The notes: generated by a model not told the origin, from the letters alone. A stretch of DNA of 64,000 nt from Solirubrobacteraceae bacterium (GCA_036267075.1 DATAWT010000042.1:4529-68528); one strand, 5' to 3'; numbered from the stretch's first letter, positions 16,929 through 47,742 are shown. A program made the numbers and translations.

Positions 16929-17735
16929 ATGAGCACTGGAACACACCCCGACACCTGGTCGCTGCGGCGTGATCTCAGGCTGGCCGGCTGGCAGATCCTC
17001 TACGAGCAGCGCGCATTCTGGCGCAACCGTGCACGGGCGTTCTTCTCCTTCCTCATGCCCGTCATGTTCCTCGTCATCTTCGCGACGATCTACCACGGCC
17101 AGACGATTCGTGGCCCGCACGGCGCGATCTCCTACGACGCCTTCTTTGTTCCCGGCATCCTCGCCTACGGCATCATCGCCACGACGTTCACCAATATGGC
17201 GATGAGCACCTCCATCCTGCGGGAACAGGGCGTACTCAAGCGGATGGCAGGCACACCGCTCCCGGGCTCGGCTTACGTCGCAGGGCGCATCGGCTCCACC
17301 CTCCTGATCACGACAGAGATGACCGTGGTGGTCCTCGTCATCGGACGCGTCGCCTACGGCGTCACGGTGCGCGGCGCGACCCTTCCCGGACTGCTTGCCG
17401 CGCTCGTCATCGGCAGCGCCAGCTTCACGGCGCGAGGTGTCGGCATCGTTCGCTACATCAAGAACGCGGAAGCGACGCCGGCGGTGATCAACTTCGCGAT
17501 CTTGCCGCTCACCTTCATCTCCGGCGTCTGGTTCCACTCGAACCTGTCGACGGGAATCACCGACATCGCCAAGGTCTTTCCGATACGACCGCTAGCTCAC
17601 GCGCTCCAGTATGCGTTCAACCCGTTTACCAGCGGCAGCGGCATCGAAGCCAACGATCTCGAGACACTCGCGATCTGGCTCGTCGTCGGAGTCTTCATGA
17701 TGGCCCGCTTCCTCCGTCGACCCGCAGGCGACTAG
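16929..17735 (+). CDS. ABC-2 type transporter permease
   Basis: 268-aa, six-TM-like hydrophobic protein directly following the DrrA-like ATPase. Confidence 0.82.
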   Translation: MSTGTHPDTWSLRRDLRLAGWQILYEQRAFWRNRARAFFSFLMPVMFLVIFATIYHGQTIRGPHGAISYDAFFVPGILAYGIIATTFTNMAMSTSILREQGVLKRMAGTPLPGSAYVAGRIGSTLLITTEMTVVVLVIGRVAYGVTVRGATLPGLLAALVIGSASFTARGVGIVRYIKNAEATPAVINFAILPLTFISGVWFHSNLSTGITDIAKVFPIRPLAHALQYAFNPFTSGSGIEANDLETLAIWLVVGVFMMARFLRRPAGD

Positions 17736-18601
17736 CTCGGCGGGGTGGGGTGAATGCTTTGTGAGGCCGCGGCCCGCGGCGCCAGGTCGGCGAGCGTGAT
17801 CGGGTGCCGAGGCGGATGATCGATAGCGACCGTCGATGACACCCGCAGGGTCTCGTCGACGTGCAGCATTTCGCCGGAAGCGAGCGGCCGCCAGCCGGAG
17901 TCCTCGTCCATCGGTTCGCTGGCGATTACAACGCCCGGCTTGGCGCCGAGGTCAGTGCTGTGCACGCGAACCGTGCCAGCGCTGCCGCTGTGCTCCAGCC
18001 CACCGCCTGGCTCCCGCTCGAGGACGTACAGCGCGTGGGTGTCGGGGTAGCGCAGAGCCCAAAGCTGGTTTCGGGTGGTGAGCACTACGTTCAGTGCGAA
18101 CAGCGGAAGCTCTTCGGCAACCCACCGAGCGGCGGCGGTCAAGCCTGCGGTCACGTCGCCGTCGTGCTGCTCGGTGTGCTTGGTCACGAGTGCGAAGAAG
18201 CGCTCGGAGTCGGTTTCACCGCTGACCAGGCTGCGGTAGCTTCCGAGCTCCGCCTCGAGCTTTGGCAGGCCCTCGATCACCCCGTTGTGAGCAAGCAGTC
18301 GACCCCGCTGTTCAAACGGGTGCGTGTTGGAGGGAGTTAGTCCGCCGGTCGACGCGAAGCGGATATGAGCGACGAATGTTTCCGATCGCACCTCCTTGGC
18401 TTCGCGCGCGAAGGCTCGATCCTCGAAGGCGGCGATCGGGCGCTTGTCGACCCTCGGCGTGCCGTTTGCGGCGAAGTACCCGAGTCCCGTGCCGTCAGGC
18501 TCGCGATGACTTTGAACCGCCAGGCTGTCGTCGGCCTGGAGCAGCCAGAACGTGGCCCGCACGCGATGCGGTGCACCGGACATACCAAATAGCCGGCACA
18601 T
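17732..18601 (-). CDS. Class II glutamine amidotransferase (stand-alone, YafJ-like)
   Basis: Begins MCRLFGMS with the catalytic Cys2, followed by ...AHIRFASTGG...NTHPF...LAHNG. Start at M147 of track ORF 17732..19039. There is no asparagine-synthetase domain. Confidence 0.82.
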   Translation of the reverse strand: MCRLFGMSGAPHRVRATFWLLQADDSLAVQSHREPDGTGLGYFAANGTPRVDKRPIAAFEDRAFAREAKEVRSETFVAHIRFASTGGLTPSNTHPFEQRGRLLAHNGVIEGLPKLEAELGSYRSLVSGETDSERFFALVTKHTEQHDGDVTAGLTAAARWVAEELPLFALNVVLTTRNQLWALRYPDTHALYVLEREPGGGLEHSGSAGTVRVHSTDLGAKPGVVIASEPMDEDSGWRPLASGEMLHVDETLRVSSTVAIDHPPRHPITLADLAPRAAASQSIHPTPPS

Positions 18602-18616
18602 CGCTGTCGAACCATA

Positions 18617-19180
18617 ATGCTCGGATCGGTGTCTCCCTCCGGCGAGGACGTCGCGTGCTCCGGCTTGCGCGTTCGTGAGTTGCTTCTGGCCGAGGTCGGT
18701 GTTCGGATCGACTACTTCCACGACGCCTCGGACGAGCACCTCCTCACGCTCGGCGTCGATCGTGCACTGCTGCCGTCGCGTCAGGCGTGGCGGGAGTTCT
18801 ACGAGACCGACTACCCGCGACCAATCCACGAGCGTGAGCACTACATCCTGGCCTGGGAGCTCGACGAGCGAGTGATCGGCTTCAGCTCTACCGACCAGAT
18901 CACCTACGGAGAGCAGGCCTTCATGCATCTGCACATCATCGATCCGCCGGATCGACGAGCCGGACTCGGAACCGAGCTGGTGAAGCTCTCCGCGGCCGCG
19001 TACTTTCGCGCGCTCGACCTGCAGCGCCTCTACTGCCAACCGAACGCGTTCAACGTTGCTCCCAACCGGACGCTGCAGCGTGCCGGGTTTCGCTACTTGT
19101 TCACCCGGCAGTTACAGCCCAGCCCGATCAATTTCCACCAGCCGGTCACTCGCTGGGTTCTCGACGAGCCACCGCGATAG
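18617..19180 (+). CDS. GNAT-family N-acetyltransferase
   Basis: Acetyl-CoA-binding-like core (IIDPPDRRAGLGTELV...NAFNVAPNRTLQRAGF). It is divergent from the GATase gene, with only about 15 nt between the two starts. Confidence 0.7.
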   Translation: MLGSVSPSGEDVACSGLRVRELLLAEVGVRIDYFHDASDEHLLTLGVDRALLPSRQAWREFYETDYPRPIHEREHYILAWELDERVIGFSSTDQITYGEQAFMHLHIIDPPDRRAGLGTELVKLSAAAYFRALDLQRLYCQPNAFNVAPNRTLQRAGFRYLFTRQLQPSPINFHQPVTRWVLDEPPR

Positions 19181-20446: not shown

Positions 20447-21391
20447 TCAGCGTTCGCGCCGGTAGGCGATCAGCGCGCGAGGCAGCCCGGCGATCACAGC
20501 GAGCACTCGCAGCGCCCGCGCGAGGAGAAGGCCCGCCGAGCCTCGACGCGCGAGCGCATGGTCGCCCCGTAGCTGCTCTGCAGGCGGAAACAGCTTGGCC
20601 GCAACGTAGGCGAGGCGCGCCGCATGCGTGGGCCGCGAGCGCAGGTGCGAGATCGAGTACACCGACCGCGGCGCACGGCCTGAGGTAACGGCCCCGACGA
20701 GGTTGTAGTAGTCGGAGCCGCGCGGGCTGATCATGAGGCGTTCGGCAAGTTGGGCGCCCGCGGCGAGGCGCTGCAACCGCGCCGACAGCTCGGACTCGAT
20801 TCCGAGCTCGCGCGCCAGGCTGACGGCTGCTCCCCAGGTCACGTCATCGACGCGCGCAAGCGCCAGTTCGAGATCCTGCCACGGCTTGCTCGTTGGACCG
20901 TCGGCCGGCACCGGGTGAAGCGCCACGTTGAGCGTCGTGAGCACGGGGTCGGTGACGTTGACGCTCGCGCCGCCGACCTCCATTTGCGAGAGGTGCCTGC
21001 CGACCATCGCCCAAACGCGGTCGGCGGCGACACGCTCCATGCCGTGCAGCGTGCGATGCAGATCGACATTCGCCCCGTCGTCGCTGCGCAGGAAGATCCG
21101 GGCGTGATGTTCGTCGGCCTCGATCAGCGGATGCTCCTGTGCGCGGAAGCCGAGCTCGGTGAGCAGTGCCCGCGCGCGCTCGGTGTCATCGGGGCCGACG
21201 AGCAGGTCGCAGTCGCAGTAGACGCGCCGTTCCGGCTGCTCGCTGTAGAGCCGGCGCGCGATAACCGGACCCTTCAGGAGCACCGGCTCGATGGCTCGCG
21301 CACGCATCGCGCGCACGACCTCGGCCGTCCAGCTGTCGACACGCAACCGCAGCGCGGTGGCCACCGCCACGGCGCTGGGGCTCTCACTCAT
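20447..21391 (-). CDS. Uncharacterised nucleotidyltransferase family protein (NTP_transf_5-like)
   Basis: AIEPVLLKGPVIARRLYSEQPERRVYCDCDLLVGPDDTERARALLTELGF matches the hallmark of that family: LLKG ... R.. DxDLLV ... L...GF. Confidence 0.75.
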   Translation of the reverse strand: MSESPSAVAVATALRLRVDSWTAEVVRAMRARAIEPVLLKGPVIARRLYSEQPERRVYCDCDLLVGPDDTERARALLTELGFRAQEHPLIEADEHHARIFLRSDDGANVDLHRTLHGMERVAADRVWAMVGRHLSQMEVGGASVNVTDPVLTTLNVALHPVPADGPTSKPWQDLELALARVDDVTWGAAVSLARELGIESELSARLQRLAAGAQLAERLMISPRGSDYYNLVGAVTSGRAPRSVYSISHLRSRPTHAARLAYVAAKLFPPAEQLRGDHALARRGSAGLLLARALRVLAVIAGLPRALIAYRRER

Positions 21392-21473
21392 CCGTGGTCT
21401 CCGCCGGCCGGAAGCGGGTCGGCGGCCGCCGGCGGAGGAGCAACGCCGCGCGGTTCGATGCCGACGGGCTCGC

Positions 21474-22487
21474 TCAAGCCGGCGAGACGGCGGGTTGCGT
21501 CGCGGGCCGGCTGACCGCGGCCGAGCGAATCAGCGCCTCTATCGCCGGCACGCCCTCGGCGGGAGTGGCGGCTATCGCGCCGTCCGCGTCGATGAGCACC
21601 GCAGACGGCGTTGCGCGCAGCGCATAAAGGCCGAACACTTCGGACCCCTCCTGGGCGAGAGCCACACTCAGCCCCGCGTCGTCGGCAATGCGATCGACCT
21701 CGGAGTGCTCGCCCGAGAAAATCGCCGGAAGTGACACGGCGCCGGCGAGCGACTCCTGCCAGTCGGCGAGCTTCGGCAGCATCGTCAGGCACGGCATGCA
21801 TCGCGTGCTCAGGAACACCAGAATCGTTGGCTGCGGTGGGTTGAGCAGTTCCTCGAGCGTCTCGGCGGCGCCCCTGATCGCGGCAAGAGTGAAGGCGGGA
21901 GCTGCCGCCCCGCGCGGGAGCCCCGGCGGTTGCTTGGCAGCGATGACGGTGGCCAGCTCGCGGCGCAGGCGGCGTCCGTCGCCCCATTGTGCGGCTGCAG
22001 CCAGCCCCAGCACGAGCGCAAGCACCGCGGTGGCGACGAGTGCGTCTTGTGTGCCGTTGAGACTCGCGAGTCCGCCGTCGAGCGATGGTCCGCTGCCTGC
22101 GATCAGGATCAGCAGCGCCGGCGCTGCGAGCACGGCATTGCGCGCGAGCGTCGCGGGACCGGCCGGCTCGGAGTGGATCTGGCCGAAGCAATGACAGTCC
22201 GGTGCCCGCCCTTGCGACATGGCGCGCGCGACGCCGCCAATGAAGACGACCAGCAGCACCAGGGCGCCGGCGGCGCCGGCGACGGCCGTCGGGCGGATCA
22301 GCAGCGCGACCGCGACGGCCAGCTCGCAAAGCGGCAGAGCCACGCCGGCGAGCGCCGCCACTCGCACCGGCACACCGAACTCTCCAAGCGCCGCGCGTGA
22401 CCCCGCCAGATCGAGCAGCTTCCCGGCCGCCGCCAGCAGGAACACGCCCGCCAGAACGCAGCGGGCAGATAACAACAGTGCGCTCAC
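21474..22487 (-). CDS. MauE/DoxX-family membrane protein fused to a TlpA-like thioredoxin domain
   Basis: GTG start. The N-terminal part has four TM-like helices with the CHCFG motif (C98, C100). The C-terminal part is a thioredoxin fold carrying CMPC (C230-C233) in ILVFLSTRCMPCLTMLPKL, then ATPSAVLIDADG. Confidence 0.8.
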   Translation of the reverse strand: MSALLLSARCVLAGVFLLAAAGKLLDLAGSRAALGEFGVPVRVAALAGVALPLCELAVAVALLIRPTAVAGAAGALVLLVVFIGGVARAMSQGRAPDCHCFGQIHSEPAGPATLARNAVLAAPALLILIAGSGPSLDGGLASLNGTQDALVATAVLALVLGLAAAAQWGDGRRLRRELATVIAAKQPPGLPRGAAAPAFTLAAIRGAAETLEELLNPPQPTILVFLSTRCMPCLTMLPKLADWQESLAGAVSLPAIFSGEHSEVDRIADDAGLSVALAQEGSEVFGLYALRATPSAVLIDADGAIAATPAEGVPAIEALIRSAAVSRPATQPAVSPA

Positions 22488-22535
22488 GACTTAATCGTAG
22501 AGGCGCGCCGAGCCTGGAATGGCCGGCTGGCTCCT
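22488..22535. promoter_or_regulatory. 48-bp divergent intergenic region between the MauE-Trx and HprK-like genes
   Basis: Only 48 nt (gacttaatcgtagaggcgcgccgagcctggaatggccggctggctcct) separate the two divergent start codons. It must hold both promoters, or the mRNAs are leaderless. Confidence 0.3.
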
Positions 22536-23369
22536 ATGATCGCGCCGATGAGGCTGAGACGAGACCGCGCGGGATCGATGGCATTCGAAGCGTTTGGGGT
22601 CGCTGCGGAGGTGCGTTTTGGTGCCGCCGAGCTCGAAGCGCACGTGCGCGCGATTCTTCCCCCGGGCTGGCGCGCGTGCGACTCGGCGAGGGCCATCGCC
22701 ACGTTCTCGCTGCAACGTGTGGAGGTCGACAGCTACAGCGTGACCATCAACGGCAGCAGCGCGATCGAGCATGCCAGTCTCGATGTCGCCCTCGGGCTGA
22801 TCGACGCCGACATCCGCATGCTGATCGCGACGAAGACGAGCGACTGGATCTTCGTCCATGCCGGAGTGGTCGCGCTGGGCGATCGCGCACTGGTCCTCCC
22901 GGGTACGAGCTTCTCGGGCAAGAGCACGATCGTGCGCTCGCTAGTCGAGCTCGGCGCGACCTACTACTCAGACGAATACGCCGTGTTCGATGAAGACGGG
23001 ATGGTTCATCCCTATCCGCGGCGGCTCTCGATCCGAAGCGACGACGGCGCGGTGATCACCGAGCACGACGTCCGCGAGCTCGGCGGCGTAGCCGGCGAGG
23101 ACCGGGCAGCGGTGGGGCTCGTCGCACTGATCCGCTACCGCCCCGGCGCGCAGTGGCGGCCGGCGACGATCTCGGCGGGCGAAGGCACGGTCGCCGTGCT
23201 CACCAACACGGTCCCGGCGCAGCAGCGGCCCGGCGACTCGCTGCGCACCGTGGCCCGGGCGCTGCGCGACAGCCGTGTGCTGGTGGGCGACCGCGGCGAG
23301 GCGGGGGTGGCCGCGGAGGCACTGTTTGCGGAGCTAACCGCCGCCGGAAGCGAGGCTCCGCGTTCTTGA
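22536..23369 (+). CDS. HPr-kinase/phosphorylase-like P-loop protein (HprK-related kinase)
   Basis: FVHAGVVALGDRALVLPGTSFSGKSTIVRSLVELGATYYSDEYAVF resembles the HprK C-terminal domain P-loop (G.S..GKS) and the following SD-D/E segment. M5 or M15 are alternative starts. Confidence 0.72.
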   Translation: MIAPMRLRRDRAGSMAFEAFGVAAEVRFGAAELEAHVRAILPPGWRACDSARAIATFSLQRVEVDSYSVTINGSSAIEHASLDVALGLIDADIRMLIATKTSDWIFVHAGVVALGDRALVLPGTSFSGKSTIVRSLVELGATYYSDEYAVFDEDGMVHPYPRRLSIRSDDGAVITEHDVRELGGVAGEDRAAVGLVALIRYRPGAQWRPATISAGEGTVAVLTNTVPAQQRPGDSLRTVARALRDSRVLVGDRGEAGVAAEALFAELTAAGSEAPRS

Positions 23370-23452
23370 CCGCGCGAGCCTGGCGCGGGTGTCCCCCAGC
23401 GTCGGACGAATCTACCCTCGGTAGCGCTGCGTGACTTCGCTACCGTGACGCC

Positions 23453-24067
23453 ATGGCCGATCGACCGCGGGCACGCAGCACCGGCGTCCTCACCGAGCAG
23501 GTCGGCGACGAGCTCGTCGTCTACGACTCGGTCTCGCGCAGCGCGCACTGCCTTTCGGCGGACGCCGCCTCGGTGTGGTCGCTGTGTGACGGGGAGCGCT
23601 CGCCCGCCGGCATCGCCGGAGAGCTCGGCATGGCAGGCGAAAGCGTCGACACCGCGCTGCGTGAGCTCGGTGATGCCGGACTGCTCGAGAGCGTCTTTCG
23701 CCAACAGCAGGGTATTTCGCGACGCGATGCCGCGAAGCGCCTGGCGACGATCGGAGCCGCCGCAGTCAGCGCGCCGCTGATCTACTCGGTGGTGATCCCC
23801 GCCGCCGCGGCGGCAATGTCTGGCACGAGCGGCCCCACCGATCTGTGCGCCGGCAAGAACTGCGACGACCACAACGCCTGCACGATCGACGGATGCAACC
23901 CGCTCAACGGCCAGTGCACCCACACTCCGGTCGTCTGCGACGACAACAATCTCTGCACGATCGACACGTGCGATGTCACGAAGGGCTGCGTTTTCACGCG
24001 AGTGGCAAACGGCACGCCGTGTCAGGACGGGACGTGCCAGGGCGGTGTCTGCGTAAAGACCCCCTGA
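23453..24067 (+). CDS. PqqD/RRE-like domain fused to a twin-arginine-like hydrophobic segment and a 12-Cys repeat domain
   Basis: Residues ~10-80 are PqqD-like (ELVVYDSVSRSAHCLSADAASVWSLCDGERSPAGIAGELG...VDTALRELGDAGLL). Residues 88-121 are ISRRDAAKRLATIGAAAVSAPLIYSVVIPAAAAA. Residues 132-200 are CAGKNCDDHNACTIDGCNPLNGQCTHTPVVCDDNNLCTIDTCDVTKGCVFTRVANGTPCQDGTCQGGVC. Confidence 0.8.
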   Translation: MADRPRARSTGVLTEQVGDELVVYDSVSRSAHCLSADAASVWSLCDGERSPAGIAGELGMAGESVDTALRELGDAGLLESVFRQQQGISRRDAAKRLATIGAAAVSAPLIYSVVIPAAAAAMSGTSGPTDLCAGKNCDDHNACTIDGCNPLNGQCTHTPVVCDDNNLCTIDTCDVTKGCVFTRVANGTPCQDGTCQGGVCVKTP

Positions 24068-27133: not shown

Positions 27134-28102
27134 GTGCGTCGAGGTTGGATCACCGCGACGGCGGCGCTGGTCGCTGCCCTGCTCGTATCGCCTACGGCCG
27201 GTGCGGCCGACGGCGCCTGTGGCTCCCTGACCTCATCGGTGACCCAGGCGGTTGACGCCCAGGTGATCTCGAACATCTATGCCAACGAGCTGTCCGGACG
27301 CGAGGTCAGCCAGGATCTCGCGCAGATCGCGGCCGCGCCCGACCTGCTGGCGGGCGTCGCCGCAGATGCCCCGGCGGCAACCTTCAAAGCCGTCAAGCGC
27401 ATCGTCTACCACCACGGCTGGCACATCGTTCGCCTGCGCGTTCTCGATGCCTCGGGGAAGCTGCTCGCCGACTTCGGCGGCCCGTTCGTGGTTGCGCCGG
27501 TGCGCGGGATCCTGCGGTCGGCGAGCGGCGCCAAGATCGGCAGCTTCGTGATGTCCGTGCAGGACGACGCCGGCATCGCCAAGCTCGAGAACCGCTTCGT
27601 CGGCGACGCGGTGGCGGTCTACTACAACACCCACCCGGTCGTTGAGGTCGGCGGGGTCTTCTTCCCTCGCGCCATGCCGCGCGGCACCGCGCTGACCGTA
27701 CGCGGCGTTCGCTACACCGTCCAGAAGCTGACCTACAACGCTTTCCCGACCGGCACGCTGACGATGGTCATCCTCGTTCCCCCCGTCTCAAGCGCCGTCG
27801 CTTCCGAGCCGTGCGCGACGGTTCGCACCGGCGAGTTCGGCCGCGTCGCACGCCGCCTGACGACGCTGCTGGGCCCGATCACGCAGCACTACTACGGCTA
27901 CACCTACTGGGTTCACCTCTACACGGGTGCCGCGGTCTACGTGCGCAATCCCGACGGCTCGCAGATCGCCTCAAGCGACGGAACCGATCCCGACGACCTG
28001 CCGATCGCTGGGGCCGCCACGGTCAACGGGCAGAGCTACCTCGTTTTCTCCTTCGAACCGAAGCCGCCGGTTCGCGTGTACCTGCTCGTGGCGCCGGCCT
28101 GA
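27134..28102 (+). CDS. Hypothetical secreted protein
   Basis: A GTG start gives VRRGWITATAALVAALLVSPTAGAADG, a signal peptide. GC3 is high. I recognise no family. Confidence 0.6.
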   Translation: MRRGWITATAALVAALLVSPTAGAADGACGSLTSSVTQAVDAQVISNIYANELSGREVSQDLAQIAAAPDLLAGVAADAPAATFKAVKRIVYHHGWHIVRLRVLDASGKLLADFGGPFVVAPVRGILRSASGAKIGSFVMSVQDDAGIAKLENRFVGDAVAVYYNTHPVVEVGGVFFPRAMPRGTALTVRGVRYTVQKLTYNAFPTGTLTMVILVPPVSSAVASEPCATVRTGEFGRVARRLTTLLGPITQHYYGYTYWVHLYTGAAVYVRNPDGSQIASSDGTDPDDLPIAGAATVNGQSYLVFSFEPKPPVRVYLLVAPA

Positions 28103-29327
28103 TCGAGACGCTGACCGGCCGCGTGCTGCACGGGTAGCCGTTGCAGTCCTGCGGCGCCGCGGCGCCGTCGCCGAGATCGCCGAACCAGTCGGCACCCCAG
28201 CAGCGCACCGTCCCGCCGGCGAGCAGCGCGCAGGTGTGATCGCCGCCCGCCGCGACTGCCACCACGTGTGAGAGCGACGCGGTGGCGACGGGCGTCTTCG
28301 CGCAGCGCACGAGCTGCCAGTAACAGGTCTGCGGGCCGCCGCTCTGGCCGTCACCGAGCTGGCCGTAGGAGTTGTAGCCCCAGCACTCGAGCGCGCCCGC
28401 GGCGATCGCGCAGGTGTGGTCGCCGCCGGCGGAGATCGCCGACGCGCCGGCCAGCCCCTCGACGGCCACCGCATGGGCGCTGCACCAGCCACCGCTGCTG
28501 CACACTGCCGGGCCGCTGCTCGTCCCGATCCCGAGCTCGGCCGCGAAGTTGTAGCCCCAGCACTCGACCGTCCCGCCGGCGAGGATCGCGCATGTGTGGT
28601 CGTCGCCGGCGGCGATCGCGACCGCCCCGCTGACGCCCGCGACGGCGACCGCGGTGCGCGAGCACGCCTCCCCGCCGCAGCTCTGCGGCCCGACGCTCGT
28701 GCCGGTCCCGAGCTGGCCATAGCCGTTTGCGCCCCAGCAGCGCACCGAGCCGCCGGAGATCAGCGCGCAGGAGTGCTGGCCGCCGGCCGCGACCGCGATC
28801 GCCGCCCGGACTCCGGCGACCGTTGCCGCACCGCCGCGTGCGGCGCCGCCGAGCTGCCCGGCGCCGTCCGCTCCCCAGCATTCGACGCCACCGCTCGCAA
28901 GCAGCGCGCAGGCGTGGTCTGCGCCGACCGAGACCGAGACGGCGCCCGAGACCCCCTCGATCGCCGCGGCGCTGGCTCCCCGCCCGGCGCCCCAGCAGTC
29001 GACCGACCCGCCGGTCAGCACGGCGCACGTCTGGTCGCCGCCGGCGGCGATCGCGATCGCGCCGCGCAGGCCGCGCACCCGCACCGGTGCGGTTGAGCAT
29101 GCGCTTCCGTCGCAGTTCTGTGGCCCGCGCAGCGTGCCATCGCCGAGCTGGCCGTCACCGTTGGCGCCCCAGCATTCGACGCTCCCCCCGGTGAGCAGGG
29201 CGCAACTGTGGTCTGAGCCGGCCGCGATCGCGGTGACCGCCGGAGCAGACGCCGCGATGCCGAGCGGCGCGCTGCAGAGCAGCAGCACGAGCGCGATGGC
29301 GGCCGCGGTCAGCGTCGATGTACGCAC
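28023..29327 (-). CDS. Secreted RCC1-repeat (beta-propeller) protein
   Basis: The GTG start (V117 of track ORF 28023..29675) gives the signal VRTSTLTAAAIALVLLLCSAPLGIAASA. It is followed by seven repeats of the form AAG..H.CA.L..G.V.CWG.N..GQLG.G. Confidence 0.82.
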   Translation of the reverse strand: MRTSTLTAAAIALVLLLCSAPLGIAASAPAVTAIAAGSDHSCALLTGGSVECWGANGDGQLGDGTLRGPQNCDGSACSTAPVRVRGLRGAIAIAAGGDQTCAVLTGGSVDCWGAGRGASAAAIEGVSGAVSVSVGADHACALLASGGVECWGADGAGQLGGAARGGAATVAGVRAAIAVAAGGQHSCALISGGSVRCWGANGYGQLGTGTSVGPQSCGGEACSRTAVAVAGVSGAVAIAAGDDHTCAILAGGTVECWGYNFAAELGIGTSSGPAVCSSGGWCSAHAVAVEGLAGASAISAGGDHTCAIAAGALECWGYNSYGQLGDGQSGGPQTCYWQLVRCAKTPVATASLSHVVAVAAGGDHTCALLAGGTVRCWGADWFGDLGDGAAAPQDCNGYPCSTRPVSVSIRPAPRAGTREPAASVRRRKRGSSAR

Positions 29328-29411
29328 GGCTGCAATTGTGGATGCTCGCTCACCCGCCCGGTCTGGTGGAATGTGGGCAGTGGCTGCTCGACACCGCCTC
29401 ACGCAGGCGCG

Positions 29412-30890
29412 ATGAGTCGCACCCTCCGCCGGATGATCGGCGCCTCCGTGCTGATCGTCGCCCTGACGTGCGTCGCTCTTTCGACCGCCGCGATCGAGAC
29501 CGTCGGGACGGTCGGCGACCTCCTCGGCAAGGGCGGCTACGTCAAGTCGACCGAGCTTCAACCGGTCGGTGCCGACTCGCCGACGACGTTCCTGATCCTC
29601 GGCTCCGACCAGCGCGACAAGGGCGCCGTCGATTACACGAACTTCGGACGCAGCGACACGATTCTCCTCGTCCACCTCGATCCGAGCTCAGGCCTCTGGA
29701 GTGAGATGTCGATCCCGCGCGACTTCTACGTCCACTGGAAGTGGAAGCGCAACACCTACGACACCAAGATCAACGAGGCCTTCTCGATCGGTGGCGTCAA
29801 GGCGTCGCTGCACGTCGTCAAGGACCTTCTGCAGATGCCGATCAACTACGTCGTCGACATCGACTTCAGCGCGTTCGATGCGATCGTCGACAAACTCGGC
29901 TGCGTATACGTCGACGTCGACCACCTCTATTACAACCCGCCAGGCGACGGCTACGCGTCGATCAACGTCCGGTCCGGCTATCAGCGGCTGTGCGGTCAGC
30001 ACGCGCTCGACTACGTCCGCTACCGCCACGACGACAGTACCTTCGCGCGCGACGCCCGCGAACAGGCCTTCCTGCGAGACGCCAAGCAGCAGCTCGGCCT
30101 GAGCGGCCTGCTCGGGCACGCGCAGGACATCGTCAACGCCCTGGCGGGCGGGATAACCTCCAATCTCCCACGCGGCTCGGCTGCTCTGACGGGGCTGCTC
30201 GAGACCGTGGTCGACTCCGTCAGCGGCCCGGTCAACCAGATCCAGTTCCCCAACCAGCCGCTCGTCCTCCCCGACGGCGAGGATGACCAGACGGCCTCGC
30301 GCAGCCAGATCCGCTCCGTTGTCGCGCAGTTCCTGCAGCCGAGCGTCGCGCCGCCGCAGGTCGCCGGGATCGTCGCCGCCGCGCGGCGCGCCACGCGCCA
30401 TCACCACCACGCGCACGGCTCCTCCGCGCACGGCGCGTTCGTCCCGTCGGCGCCGCATCTGATCGCCACGAACTCGGGCGTCGCCACGGAGGCCCAGACG
30501 CTTTCGCCGAACGTCAGCTTCCCGGTCGTCGTGCCGTCGCTCTCACTCGACACCGCCACGCTCGCCCAGTCCGACTTCGATCCCTTCTCCCATTACGCGG
30601 TGCGTGACCCGCAGGGGCATCTCCACTACGGCTACCGGATCGTCTTTTCGACCGGTGACGTCGCGTCCTACTACGGCATCGAGGGCATGAACTGGACGAA
30701 CCCGCCGCTCTTCGCCCACGCCGATCATGTGCACGTCGACGGCGTCAACTACCTCTACGTCAACACCGGCGGCAAGGTCCAGGATGTCGGCTGGATCTCG
30801 CACGGCGCGCTCTACTGGATCAGCAACACGATCTTCCAGAACCTCACAAACGCCCAGATGTTCGCGCTCGCCGAGTCGGCCGCGGACTGA
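29412..30890 (+). CDS. LytR-CpsA-Psr (LCP) family cell-envelope phosphotransferase with a long C-terminal extension
   Basis: N-terminal TM, then [10 protein letters not shown]...[12 protein letters not shown]...SIPRD...INEAF...VDIDFSAF...ALDYVRYRH...D..R..RQQ-like REQAFL. Confidence 0.82.
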
Positions 30891-46431: not shown

Positions 46432-47742
46432 TCACTCCGCAGGGAAGCGCAGGCGCAGCCCCGGCGTGATGCGCCGGATGTCGCTCTCGTCGACCGCGAC
46501 GTCCTGCGCATAACGAGGCCATTCGGAGACGACGGCGCACACCTCGTCAAGGATGCGCTTGGCCTCACCCCGCTTGAGCCGCGCGACACGGCCCACCTGG
46601 TGGAAATCCTCGAGCGTGAAGCCATCGCGCTTGCCGGCCAGCGACATCTGGTGTTGCGAAGTCCATTCGCCCGTCGGGTTGTAGGAGTAGCTGAGGTCGA
46701 ACGCCGGCGAGAGTTCCCACTTTCCCGCGCGATCCATCAGGAACGCGATGTTCTTGACGTGGTCGTCCTGGTTTCGGCCGACGACGTTGAACAGCATGCG
46801 GCGGAACTGCTCGCGGGCGGCGTCAGCTTCCAGCCCGAGCGCGTAGATGACCTGGAATGCCTGCTCGTAGGAGTACGCGCCGGCCGCTCGGAAGTCGAAG
46901 TGGGCGAGCGCGGCGAGCGACTGCATGTGACGTTTGCCTCCGTCGTCGTCACGATCGAAACGGCGGGTCATGAAGTGGCGACGCCCGTTTTCCTCCATCA
47001 GCCGGCACTCGGTCATCGCGATGCCGCCGTCGCGGGCCATGTGCGAATACGCGAGTTCGATGGCGCCGAAGCCCGCCGGATCTGCGAGTCGCTCGCGGTC
47101 TTTGTTGCCCTTCACGCCGTCGAATTTCAACAGCCAGTATTCGAAGCCCGGGCCGGCGTCGAGCTGCCCCGAGCGGACCTCGCCGGTGGTGCGGTTCCAG
47201 GCGATTACCGCCTTGGCACGAGCACCGCCGGCCGACGTGCCGACGCTCAGAATGTCGCGCATCGCCTGCTCGCGCCGGCCGGCGGCGAGCGAGGCGACGA
47301 GCTCGGAGCGGTGGCTGAGCACTTCGGAGGCGAGCTCAACCAGGGCTGCGACGTGAAGTGTGTGGTTGCGCGTAGCGCGGGGCCCGCTCGCGGGTGCGAA
47401 CTCCAGCGCGCCCACCCCGCGGCGCCCGGTGTAGCAGAGTCGCTCGACCGCGTCGAAGCTTTCCGGGCTGCGCCCCTGTCCCGCCAGCCAGGCGTCGATG
47501 AGCGCCTGCCCGTAGCGGTCGGGCAGGGAATCGGCAAGCAGGCCGGGCAGGCCGTGGAAGCTGTCGAGGTTCAGGTTGGGGAACGCGAAGAGCCCCGCAC
47601 GCAGGGGCATCATGAGCGGCGAGACCTCGATGCCGCTGGCGCGGAACGCCCGGTCATACTCAAACCGTGCGGCGCGGCCGACGTCGAGTGAGACGGCCCC
47701 GATGGTGCTGCCCCAAAGGCGCACCATCGCCAACGAGCTCAC
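46432..47742 (-). CDS. hipA: HipA-family serine/threonine kinase toxin (type II TA)
   Basis: HipA N-terminal coupling region (GLPGLLADSLPDRYG), VGTSAGGARAKA and a catalytic region (RMLFNVVGRNQDDHVKNIAFL). 436 aa. Confidence 0.88.
   Translation of the reverse strand: MSSLAMVRLWGSTIGAVSLDVGRAARFEYDRAFRASGIEVSPLMMPLRAGLFAFPNLNLDSFHGLPGLLADSLPDRYGQALIDAWLAGQGRSPESFDAVERLCYTGRRGVGALEFAPASGPRATRNHTLHVAALVELASEVLSHRSELVASLAAGRREQAMRDILSVGTSAGGARAKAVIAWNRTTGEVRSGQLDAGPGFEYWLLKFDGVKGNKDRERLADPAGFGAIELAYSHMARDGGIAMTECRLMEENGRRHFMTRRFDRDDDGGKRHMQSLAALAHFDFRAAGAYSYEQAFQVIYALGLEADAAREQFRRMLFNVVGRNQDDHVKNIAFLMDRAGKWELSPAFDLSYSYNPTGEWTSQHQMSLAGKRDGFTLEDFHQVGRVARLKRGEAKRILDEVCAVVSEWPRYAQDVAVDESDIRRITPGLRLRFPAE

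Follow-up and report, generated by a model that had tools for sequence, protein, structure and literature searches.

The stretch of DNA analysed here (from now on the window) comprises 64,000 nt from a Solirubrobacteraceae bacterium (GCA_036267075.1 DATAWT010000042.1:4529-68528) and contains, at positions 20447–24067, four closely spaced genes, A to D, which we propose to form a single module that matures a disulfide-rich mini-protein destined for export, with the product of gene D as the client. This reading is given a probability of roughly one half, and it is carried by the domain identities of the four proteins, the conserved linkage of their genes, the equivalence between loci where the client is fused to its recognition domain and loci where the two are separate, and the association of gene B with clients that have Cys-rich tails. 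The features of the module, in window positions, are as follows.

20447–21391, minus strand: gene A, Pol-beta-type nucleotidyltransferase of family PF14907 (NTP_transf_5), 314 aa
21474–22487, minus strand: gene B, fusion of MauE (DsbB-like membrane thiol oxidase, five transmembrane segments) and a thioredoxin fold, 337 aa
22101–22487, minus strand: MauE domain of B (aa 1–129), with the CXC-type motif C98-H99-C100 at nt 22188–22196 in the loop between transmembrane segments 3 and 4
21567–21911, minus strand: thioredoxin-fold domain of B (aa 193–307), with C230-M-P-C233; AhpC-TSA/Redoxin in Pfam, weakly ResA/MauD in NCBIfam
22488–22535, no strand: divergent intergenic gap between B and C, 48 nt (~90 nt if C starts at 22578), presumed shared promoter region
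22536–23369, plus strand: gene C, P-loop kinase of the HprK/PEPCK fold (HprK-related kinase A-like), 277 aa
23453–24067, plus strand: gene D, putative client pre-protein, 204 aa, consisting of a RiPP recognition element (RRE; RiPP, ribosomally synthesised and post-translationally modified peptide), a twin-arginine-type signal or anchor and a 12-Cys domain
23453–23692, plus strand: D aa 1–80, PqqD/RRE fold, predicted to be cytoplasmic, from AlphaFold2 (AF2) modelling, Foldseek and profile searches
23711–23821, plus strand: D aa 87–123, S89-R90-R91, then a hydrophobic region rich in Gly and Ala and, at its end, an Ala-rich AxA-type site, GISRRDAAKRLATIGAAAVSAPLIYSVVIPAAAAAMS
23822–24064, plus strand: D aa 124–204, putatively exported, containing 12 Cys and a pair of CTDC repeats of the Dictyostelium type

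All four open reading frames (ORFs) are intact at these coordinates, with a coding-type GC content at third codon positions (0.81–0.84) and a normal one at second positions, and the gaps within the module measure 48–83 nt. For gene C an alternative start at 22578 (JGI call) gives a protein of 263 aa. No σ70 consensus was found in the intergenic region between B and C, and promoter, terminator and Rfam scans were all empty. An earlier note on this DNA had listed the same four ORFs as an NTP_transf_5-like nucleotidyltransferase, a MauE/DoxX-TlpA fusion, an HPr-kinase-like P-loop protein and a PqqD-domain protein fused to a Cys-rich domain. These assignments were borne out: A and B score above the Pfam cut-offs, and C and the RRE of D are sub-threshold in the window copy with folds backed by AF2 and Foldseek.

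The N-terminal domain of D (aa 1–80) was modelled by AF2 as a beta3-alpha3 structure (three strands and three helices) at a predicted local distance difference test score (pLDDT) above 90. In the Foldseek search its top match in the PDB was the lasso-peptide B1 protein TbiB1 (5V1U), with E = 9e-4, a target-normalised template modelling score (TM(target)) of 0.70–0.72 and a root mean square deviation of 2.5 Å over 83 residues, together with a second lasso B1 protein, 6JX3 (TM(target) 0.70–0.74 over both), followed by the RRE domains of TigE, CteB, ThcOx and MccB. A profile of the D family matches TbiB1 as well (E = 0.02). The PqqD model PF05402 matches the window copy only below threshold (E = 0.05) but is present in many D homologues, and TIGR04353 (PqqD family chaperone) gave 18 bits (E = 0.004), below its cut-off of 35 bits. 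The C-terminus of D consists of Dicty_CTDC repeats (PF00526, E = 1.1e-17) with 12 Cys, again at a pLDDT above 90.

Between these two parts lies the export-type signal, which is internal and follows an 85-aa domain. When aligning 70 D sequences, R90 and R91 were among just six invariant columns and S89 was nearly invariant, and some members of the family read SRRSFMQR, SRRRFMQR or SRRRFIR. Sequences of the SRRSFMQR/SRRRFMQR type are the textbook consensus of the twin-arginine translocation (Tat) pathway, in which S/T-R-R is normal. The segment after the arginines is Gly/Ala-rich and ends at an Ala-rich AxA-type site, and in profile comparisons the signal stretch aligns only weakly to the Tat signal of NosZ (nitrous-oxide reductase, E = 0.45). 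Since positively charged residues precede the hydrophobic segment, the RRE is predicted to be cytoplasmic and the Cys-rich domain to be outside, and from its sequence we infer that D is a pre-protein made for export, of which the RRE stays in the cytoplasm while the Cys-rich part ends up beyond the membrane. The earlier note had described an RRE attached to a Cys-rich domain; the fusion is there, but the invariant S/T-R-R signal in between had been overlooked.

A family search using the RRE and signal part of D (aa 1–125) as query returned 4,843 representative clusters (E ≤ 1e-10 for 1,145), with matches that span the signal region; at 50% identity the family numbers over 1,000 clusters. Among the 210 members analysed, 204 show [ST]RR followed by a hydrophobic segment and an Ala-rich site, and the tails are 40–240 aa long, with medians of 81 aa for length and 11 for the number of Cys. 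The N-terminal parts could be aligned in 17,198 of 17,205 pairs and the tails in just 10%. Tail types include CTDC repeats, double CCSGxC knottin-like motifs, 20-Cys domains and CC-rich sequences, rarely collagen-like, poly-Ser or mucin-like ones. Paralogues occur as two copies in loci L010/L013, as tandem copies in L025 and as two loci in one metagenome-assembled genome (MAG). With a conserved N-terminal part, a hypervariable product part and multiple paralogues, the family looks in its sequences like a RiPP precursor family. In L025 (8800–13400) the kinase gene and D are duplicated in tandem and the tails are frameshifted, Arg-rich and apparently decayed, which suggests turnover of client genes.

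The strongest evidence for D being the client comes from cassettes in which the recognition domain is not fused. NCBIfam lists an HPr-rel-A system, consisting of HprK-related kinase A (TIGR04352), a PqqD family peptide chaperone (TIGR04353) and an adjacent nucleotidyltransferase, whose function is uncharacterised. In these cassettes the PqqD protein is free and 84–108 aa long, and in about nine of 14 assessable unfused loci it stands beside an ORF with a twin-arginine (RR) signal. In Sphingomonas parapaucimobilis the cassette is preceded by a 161-aa "hypothetical protein" that consists of a 33-aa extension, the signal TSRRMLMLGAVGASTVIAVRPALAQ and a mature part of ~100 aa. On the Vibrio alfacsensis plasmid NZ_CP140104 an 84-aa PqqD-like ORF, missed by RefSeq, lies between an RR-signal protein and the annotated kinase (L116, 7715–7969); this RR-signal protein, encoded by the preceding ORF of 274 aa, is made up of a 35-aa extension, FSRRRFIRSAAISSPILLSIKSPSAWAG and a mature part containing Cys. 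A divergent 177-aa ORF with LSRRELLRRGAALGG...AFAQ and 8 Cys abuts the PqqD–kinase pair of the metagenomic locus L113, and a simple motif scan placed RR-signal ORFs next to stand-alone PqqD genes also in L092/L094/L101 (17 Cys), L095, L098 and L108. As PqqD is free beside an RR-signal protein in these cassettes and fused to one in the lineage of the window, the RR-signal protein is taken to be the client of the system, and D looks, by sequence comparison, like a Rosetta-stone fusion of chaperone and client. The statement in the earlier note that the arrangement was undescribed holds in that no function is known, although the trio of PqqD, HprK-like kinase and nucleotidyltransferase is already catalogued as HPr-rel-A.

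Gene B encodes a protein with five hydrophobic segments, of which aa 1–129 match MauE (PF07291, E = 1.6e-25, 90.3 bits with a cut-off of 27) and aa 193–307 match AhpC-TSA in Pfam (E = 2.4e-8), with weak matches to MauD and ResA in NCBIfam. The motif C98-H99-C100, placed between transmembrane segments 3 and 4, is kept in 11 of 11 aligned orthologues, as is the CxPC motif of the thioredoxin fold, CMPC (C230–C233) in the window copy. MauE proteins can substitute for DsbB in E. coli, their active site being a CXC motif of the periplasmic loop between transmembrane segments 3 and 4 (preprint, 10.64898/2026.03.05.709764). Since the CHC site of B occupies the position of this active-site CXC, B looks like a self-contained disulfide-forming unit and, by analogy with MauE/MauD, like a quinone-linked oxidase fused to its own thioredoxin-fold carrier. 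B was seen only beside D genes with Cys-rich tails, two frameshifted copies excepted, and it is absent from five loci in which the tails (collagen-like, Ser-rich or Thr-rich) lack Cys.

For C no Pfam match was obtained. Its best match in NCBIfam is HprK-related kinase A (TIGR04352; 62.8 bits, E = 2.6e-17, aa 67–178), below the cut-off of 200 bits. The AF2 model (pLDDT 93) matched PEPCK (E = 2e-6) and HprK/P (E = 3e-4) in Foldseek with TM(target) 0.5–0.63; phosphoenolpyruvate (PEP) carboxykinase and HprK/P are two members of one P-loop kinase fold. The Walker A motif, G123–T131, is located at nt 22902–22928, and G123, G128 and K129 are invariant among the homologues. Because the TIGR04352 score stays below the cut-off while the HprK/PEPCK fold is confirmed, C is, on its modelled fold, a divergent relative of HprK-related kinase A and no equivalog. 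In precomputed Pfam annotation ~15 of 120 listed C homologues carry PF27840, which may be a recent model for the kinase family of C. Gene A matches PF14907 at E = 9e-24 (84.8 bits, cut-off 31.2), and its catalytic motif KG...DxD...[DE]LH, with K40-G41 and D60-x-D62 (nt 21206–21214) in the window copy, is unchanged in 46 of 46 aligned homologues. Searching PDB chains with the sequences of A and C gave nothing useful, so that for C the fold search alone was informative.

When the window proteins were used in tblastn searches, the four genes were found together in two orders, with D identities of 42–69%. The order of the window (A and B on one strand, C and D divergent from them) is that of close relatives, and in the second order, with D identities of 42–55%, C is followed by B and D in the opposite direction and then by A in the direction of C. 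Scanning one genome per species with a 13-sequence D alignment as query gave 16 loci, all in MAGs of Solirubrobacterales (Actinomycetota, class Thermoleophilia, by taxonomy lookup) except one labelled Alphaproteobacteria, and a metagenome scan added 80 further loci. A survey with iterated hidden Markov models (HMMs) yielded 114 loci in 90 clusters, and counts were made on the 32 non-redundant loci in which D is flanked on each side by 3 kb or more. C lies within 2 kb of D in 22 of these 32 loci, A within 3.5 kb in 20 and B within 2 kb in 20; all three are near D in 17, and none of them in eight. The kinase is the most persistent neighbour, directly adjacent to D even at 32–40% identity, and in L060 C and D overlap by 4 nt, which indicates an operon. 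The conserved core is the kinase–RRE pair, and the nucleotidyltransferase and MauE-thioredoxin genes are frequent but dispensable neighbours.

The full module is also present outside Solirubrobacterales, on plasmid 1 of the cultured Gemmatirosa kalamazoonensis KBS708 (Gemmatimonadota; NZ_CP007129, ~1,039,900–1,043,800), in the order kinase, PqqD-fusion D, MauE-thioredoxin and a convergent PF14907 gene. In this strain the PqqD domain of D scores 31.7 bits, above the Pfam threshold, and is fused to ISRRR...AAA and a 6-Cys tail, MauE scores 60 bits and is accompanied by a CxxC thioredoxin fold, and the PF14907 gene reaches 195 bits. The view of the earlier note that the four genes form one unit is in agreement with their joint occurrence in two gene orders in Solirubrobacterales and with the Gemmatimonadota locus, and the neighbourhood survey proposed there showed the set to recur in dozens of independent loci that have no lasso B2 or C gene.

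Several loci of the D family show other surroundings. In L005/L006, L010–L012 and L007, from several Solirubrobacteraceae MAGs, the module is found ~5–8 kb from dnaA, dnaN, rpmH, rnpA, yidC, gidB, parA and parB; this placement in the origin region is probably lineage synteny, and the window copy is located elsewhere. The D homologue P0010 (L001, 4680–7206) is an orphan with no nearby kinase or nucleotidyltransferase; close to it are AhpC-TSA fragments of 153 and 54 aa, a 93-aa ORF and a Fic gene that has been inserted, and the two fragments may be a disrupted MauE-thioredoxin gene. In L031 (Acidobacteriota CP065003, 8001–11233) genes for a DUF1223 protein and a methyltransferase are enclosed by two members of the D family (180 and 175 aa), with Peptidase_M50B nearby and no kinase or nucleotidyltransferase, that is a different accessory set with the same client architecture. 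A subgroup of D proteins with beta-rich tails and 5–6 Cys (P0030, P0038 and P0040; L004, L022 and L023) has no A-, B- or C-type enzyme within 8–10 kb; a kinase homologue, P0191, is encoded elsewhere on the same 283-kb contig. Loci with glycan-gene contexts are L020 (11600–16800), L024 (4061–7488), L032 (5513–7681), L060 (2–1495 and 3560–6346), L005 (1–4400) and L007 (1727–4006 and 14524–15321). The genes around such modules encode a Wzc-like tyrosine autokinase, glycosyltransferases of families GT2 and GT4, Wzy_C (once fused to TPR), an XrtA-type amidotransferase, UDP-GlcNAc 2-epimerase, polysaccharide deacetylase, Bac_transf and a fusion protein with PEP mutase; no such glycan context surrounds the module in the window.

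In the proposed mechanism the RRE of D (aa 1–80) would remain cytoplasmic, with aa 87–123 serving as signal or signal-anchor. C, docked via the RRE, would phosphorylate a hydroxyl of the client in the cytoplasm, and A would then add a nucleotidyl or sugar-phosphate group onto the phosphate, as its lasso homologues do. The client would be exported, possibly by the Tat pathway, which would fit a need for cytoplasmic maturation, after which B would form the six disulfides of the last 81 residues of D (12 Cys) outside the membrane, and D may finally be released by cleavage at the Ala-rich site. The covalent modification itself, its chemistry and site, the order of the events, routing by Tat or by Sec and the cleavage of the signal are the parts of this model that we infer, phosphorylation and glycosylation of D by analogy with lasso-peptide tailoring. 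The earlier note had likewise suggested that the kinase, the nucleotidyltransferase and the redox protein act on D, and D does come out as the most plausible client (from synteny, the fused and unfused forms and the occurrence of B beside Cys-rich tails), with the modification following only from the lasso analogy. A bolder version, which we put forward tentatively and would rather doubt than believe, is a new class of ribosomal products in which a substrate-borne RRE precedes a twin-arginine signal, a phospho-linked (nucleotidyl- or glycosyl-phosphate) mark is added in the cytoplasm by an HprK-type kinase together with a nucleotidyltransferase, the RRE gates Tat export until this has happened and the MauE-thioredoxin protein then completes a knottin-like or matrix-type disulfide-rich mini-protein outside; the same logic would apply to the orphan HPr-rel-A cassettes of Proteobacteria, with the neighbouring RR-signal protein as client.

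A number of observations weigh against a maturation module of this kind. The Tat-signal profiles PF10518 and TIGR01409 found no match in D (Pfam/NCBIfam, E up to 10), the Tat label being drawn from the motif alone, and the scores of C and D against the HPr-rel-A models are far below the equivalog cut-offs (62.8 vs 200 bits and 18 vs 35 bits). No conserved Ser, Thr or Tyr acceptor was found in the hypervariable tails; ~60% of the tails have a Ser or Thr within the last three residues, a proportion near chance and non-significant. Eight of the 32 well-flanked loci lack A, B and C within reach, and there either the enzymes act in trans or D works alone. Many loci are embedded in exopolysaccharide-type genes. 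For B, the positive-inside count (~11 Lys/Arg inside vs 2 outside) predicts a cytoplasmic location for both the thioredoxin domain and the CHC loop; directly after the fifth transmembrane segment (aa 167–180) there is a strictly conserved basic stretch, W-x-D-x-RRLR (RRRLR). The topology derived from homology to MauE, which has an experimental basis, places the CXC loop outside, opposite to this count, and is preferred here with the discrepancy remaining. If the count is right, the disulfides would form before Tat export.

The position of the RRE could also point to a role in export itself, as a chaperone that binds the twin-arginine signal (in cis here, in trans where unfused) in the manner of TorD, DmsD or NapD and holds the client back until a signal from the kinase and nucleotidyltransferase, for instance phosphorylation of the RRE or of the serine in S-R-R, so that the enzymes would regulate export and not decorate a product. 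The RRE is always directly upstream of, or encoded beside, an RR-type signal, the Ser or Thr before the arginines is nearly invariant, AF2 draws a low-confidence beta-strand in the hydrophobic region of D (aa 110–114), and the tails are too diverse for one conserved modification site. S/T-R-R is, however, already the normal Tat consensus, so that its conservation needs no extra cause; the homologous lasso enzymes decorate the peptide product, and we regard export gating as rather unlikely. The glycan-gene surroundings suggest instead a cell-envelope module in which the target of kinase and nucleotidyltransferase is an exopolysaccharide or a sugar linked to a lipid (phospho- or nucleotide-linked decoration) and D is a membrane-anchored matrix or adaptor protein and not the substrate. 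Loci of the second order are surrounded by genes for a Wzc-like tyrosine autokinase, glycosyltransferases of families GT2 and GT4 and Wzy_C; Wzy_C and GT2 are present in L032, an XrtA-type amidotransferase and Wzy_C with TPR in L060, and epimerase, deacetylase, Bac_transf and PEP mutase in L005 and L007, and the Sphingomonas cassette stands beside glmU and glmS; CTDC repeats of Dictyostelium occur in extracellular matrix proteins. A peptide-recognition domain would be superfluous for glycan chemistry, though, the characterised HprK-fold kinases phosphorylate proteins or peptides, no polysaccharide genes adjoin the module in the window, and the adjacency of kinase and RRE holds where such genes are missing (Vibrio and the window); we therefore consider this explanation unlikely.

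That D is a membrane-tethered regulator of the ToxR/CadC type, with a cytoplasmic winged-helix DNA-binding domain, one transmembrane segment and a Cys-rich sensor whose redox state is set by B, is very unlikely. The best structural and profile matches of the N-terminal domain are RREs with a full beta3-alpha3 fold and not DNA-binding winged helix-turn-helix (wHTH) proteins, in spite of weak sub-threshold matches to HTH_47, HTH_Crp_2, ArsR and GntR. The single-span topology of D (N-terminus in, C-terminus out) and the divergent transcription of neighbouring genes would suit a regulator, but in the unfused cassettes the PqqD protein is free (84–108 aa) and the RR-signal protein has no wHTH, and collagen-like, poly-Ser or mucin-like tails are unlikely sensors. 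A lasso cluster decayed by loss of cyclase, protease and precursor, which the earlier note had left as a possibility, was rejected as extremely unlikely. Lasso clusters are known to combine genes of the PqqD/B1-like, HprK-like and PF14907 kinds and the closest solved structures to the RRE of D are lasso B1 proteins, yet the four ORFs are intact, their catalytic motifs invariant, and the set is kept in dozens of loci in two phyla with no lasso B2 or C gene in 10-kb flanks. The sole adjacent Asn-synthase homologue, in L060, fits the XrtA/PEP-CTERM amidotransferase (263 bits) better than a lasso cyclase (94 bits).

When searching for the remaining parts of a lasso cluster, tblastn with an Asn-synthase-family query found no Asn-synthase-type cyclase in the window, no Asn_synthase was among the Pfam matches of 28 ORFs from the window (those of the module, neighbouring ones at ~17.7–36.8 kb and the longest others), and no Asn-synthase lasso cyclase is listed in the Pfam tables of 13 related places. 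Over more than 30 related loci, neither a cyclase nor a protease of the lasso type came up. No PF13471-type B2 protease appears in the Pfam tables of the module or the related loci, the scans having covered some but not all of the window's small ORFs. The earlier claim of a tailoring cluster with no core enzyme is thus upheld for Asn synthase; for radical SAM, YcaO and transglutaminase types the scan was not exhaustive and no window-wide absence is claimed. A short precursor (~40–60 aa), also missing according to the earlier note, was not found either: the gaps of 48–83 nt are too small for one, any module ORF that reaches 20 aa overlaps the four genes, and no extra small ORF is conserved among the loci.

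If the proposed module is correct, the HPr-rel-A cassettes, found in the annotation of many genomes but with no known substrate, would gain a first clue to their function, with the exported RR-signal protein as their client. RRE-guided tailoring would be extended from short peptides to exported, protein-sized, disulfide-rich products with the recognition domain on the substrate. The D family would represent a large bacterial family of Cys-rich, predicted secreted mini-proteins, including knottin-like CCSGxC forms, with conceivable roles as toxins or adhesins, in the matrix or in metal binding, and the newly proposed MauE oxidative-folding pathway would be tied to a dedicated client in Actinomycetota. 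With the full module present in the cultured KBS708 the idea is directly testable. Literature searches on PF14907, HprK-related kinases, RRE with HPr kinase, MauE with PqqD and twin-arginine signals with PqqD returned lasso papers and one phosphonate paper only. In the searchable literature we found no account of a substrate-borne RRE ahead of a twin-arginine-type signal, of RR-signal clients linked to HPr-rel-A, of how large the D family is and how varied its tails are, or of a dedicated MauE-thioredoxin partner, and no publication on the function of canonical HPr-rel-A. The component families are known and the trio is catalogued but unstudied, and there is a substantial chance of something more distinct.

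Elsewhere in the window, the gene at 17732–18601 (minus strand) encodes a stand-alone class II glutamine amidotransferase, as the earlier note had it, with EgtC as best NCBIfam match (98 bits, below cut-off). A longer ORF call for it (to 19039) overlaps the GNAT gene on the opposite strand (18617–19180), and in other loci the gene is unrelated to the module. An RCC1-repeat beta-propeller protein (28023–29675, minus strand) is encoded beside a LytR-CpsA-Psr family protein (29373–30890, plus strand); the two ORF calls overlap by ~300 nt and one of the starts is probably wrong. A HipA-type toxin kinase gene with HipA_C and Couple_hipA domains is located at 46432–47742 (minus strand).

When comparing the module with known systems, the lasso tailoring pairs (kinases of the paeninodin PadeK/ThcoK type; PsmK/PsmN of pseudomycoidin) share homologous enzymes, encoded together with a B1/PqqD RRE, and D aa 1–80 resembles their B1 proteins, as seen with TbiB1 and 6JX3. 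In these clusters the HprK homologue phosphorylates the C-terminal Ser of the precursor before folding and the nucleotidyltransferase adds hexoses onto the phosphate (PMC8498205). The window module differs in having no cyclase, B2 protease or short precursor, and its presumed substrate is a ~200-aa protein with its own RRE and export signal and no conserved C-terminal Ser; a C-terminal Ser/Thr as phospho-acceptor by analogy with the lasso kinases was set aside, the tendency being weak and non-significant. With HPr-rel-A the module shares the same three families side by side, including a PF14907 neighbour in the window (84.8 bits) as in the Sphingomonas and Vibrio cassettes, and the models of that system are the best NCBIfam matches of C and D. 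Here, however, the PqqD domain is fused to an RR-type signal and a Cys-rich domain, where the canonical one is free and ~90 aa long, the gene order is another and a MauE-thioredoxin gene is added.

MauA, methylamine dehydrogenase's small subunit, is a disulfide-rich protein served by MauE and MauD, and pre-MauA has a long twin-arginine leader. Both systems combine a MauE oxidase with a CXC loop, a thioredoxin-fold partner and, encoded next to them, a small Cys-rich protein (predicted to be exported in the case of D) whose RR-type signal is unusually extended at its N-terminal side. In B, however, MauE and the thioredoxin fold are one polypeptide, the N-terminal extension of the client is a folded RRE, there is no tryptophylquinone chemistry, and Pfam tables show none of mauA, mauB and mauG among the module neighbours in the window or in related loci. 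Long-leader RiPP precursors (NHLP/Nif11 and bufferins) resemble the D family in their conserved N-terminal part of 80–125 aa, small-residue cleavage-type motif, unalignable Cys-rich tails and paralogues, and bufferins (MNIO/DUF692 and a DUF2063 RRE, with Sec-signal precursors) also combine an export signal with RRE-dependent modification. In the D family it is the conserved N-terminal part itself that is the RRE, so that the recognition element is on the substrate and not on the enzyme, the signal is of the twin-arginine type and the tails, at 40–240 aa, are protein-sized. The Tat chaperones TorD, DmsD and NapD, finally, are likewise small cytoplasmic domains genetically coupled to one RR-signal client; the domain in D has an unrelated fold (the winged-helix/beta-sheet RRE), has no known cofactor insertion and is fused to its client in cis.

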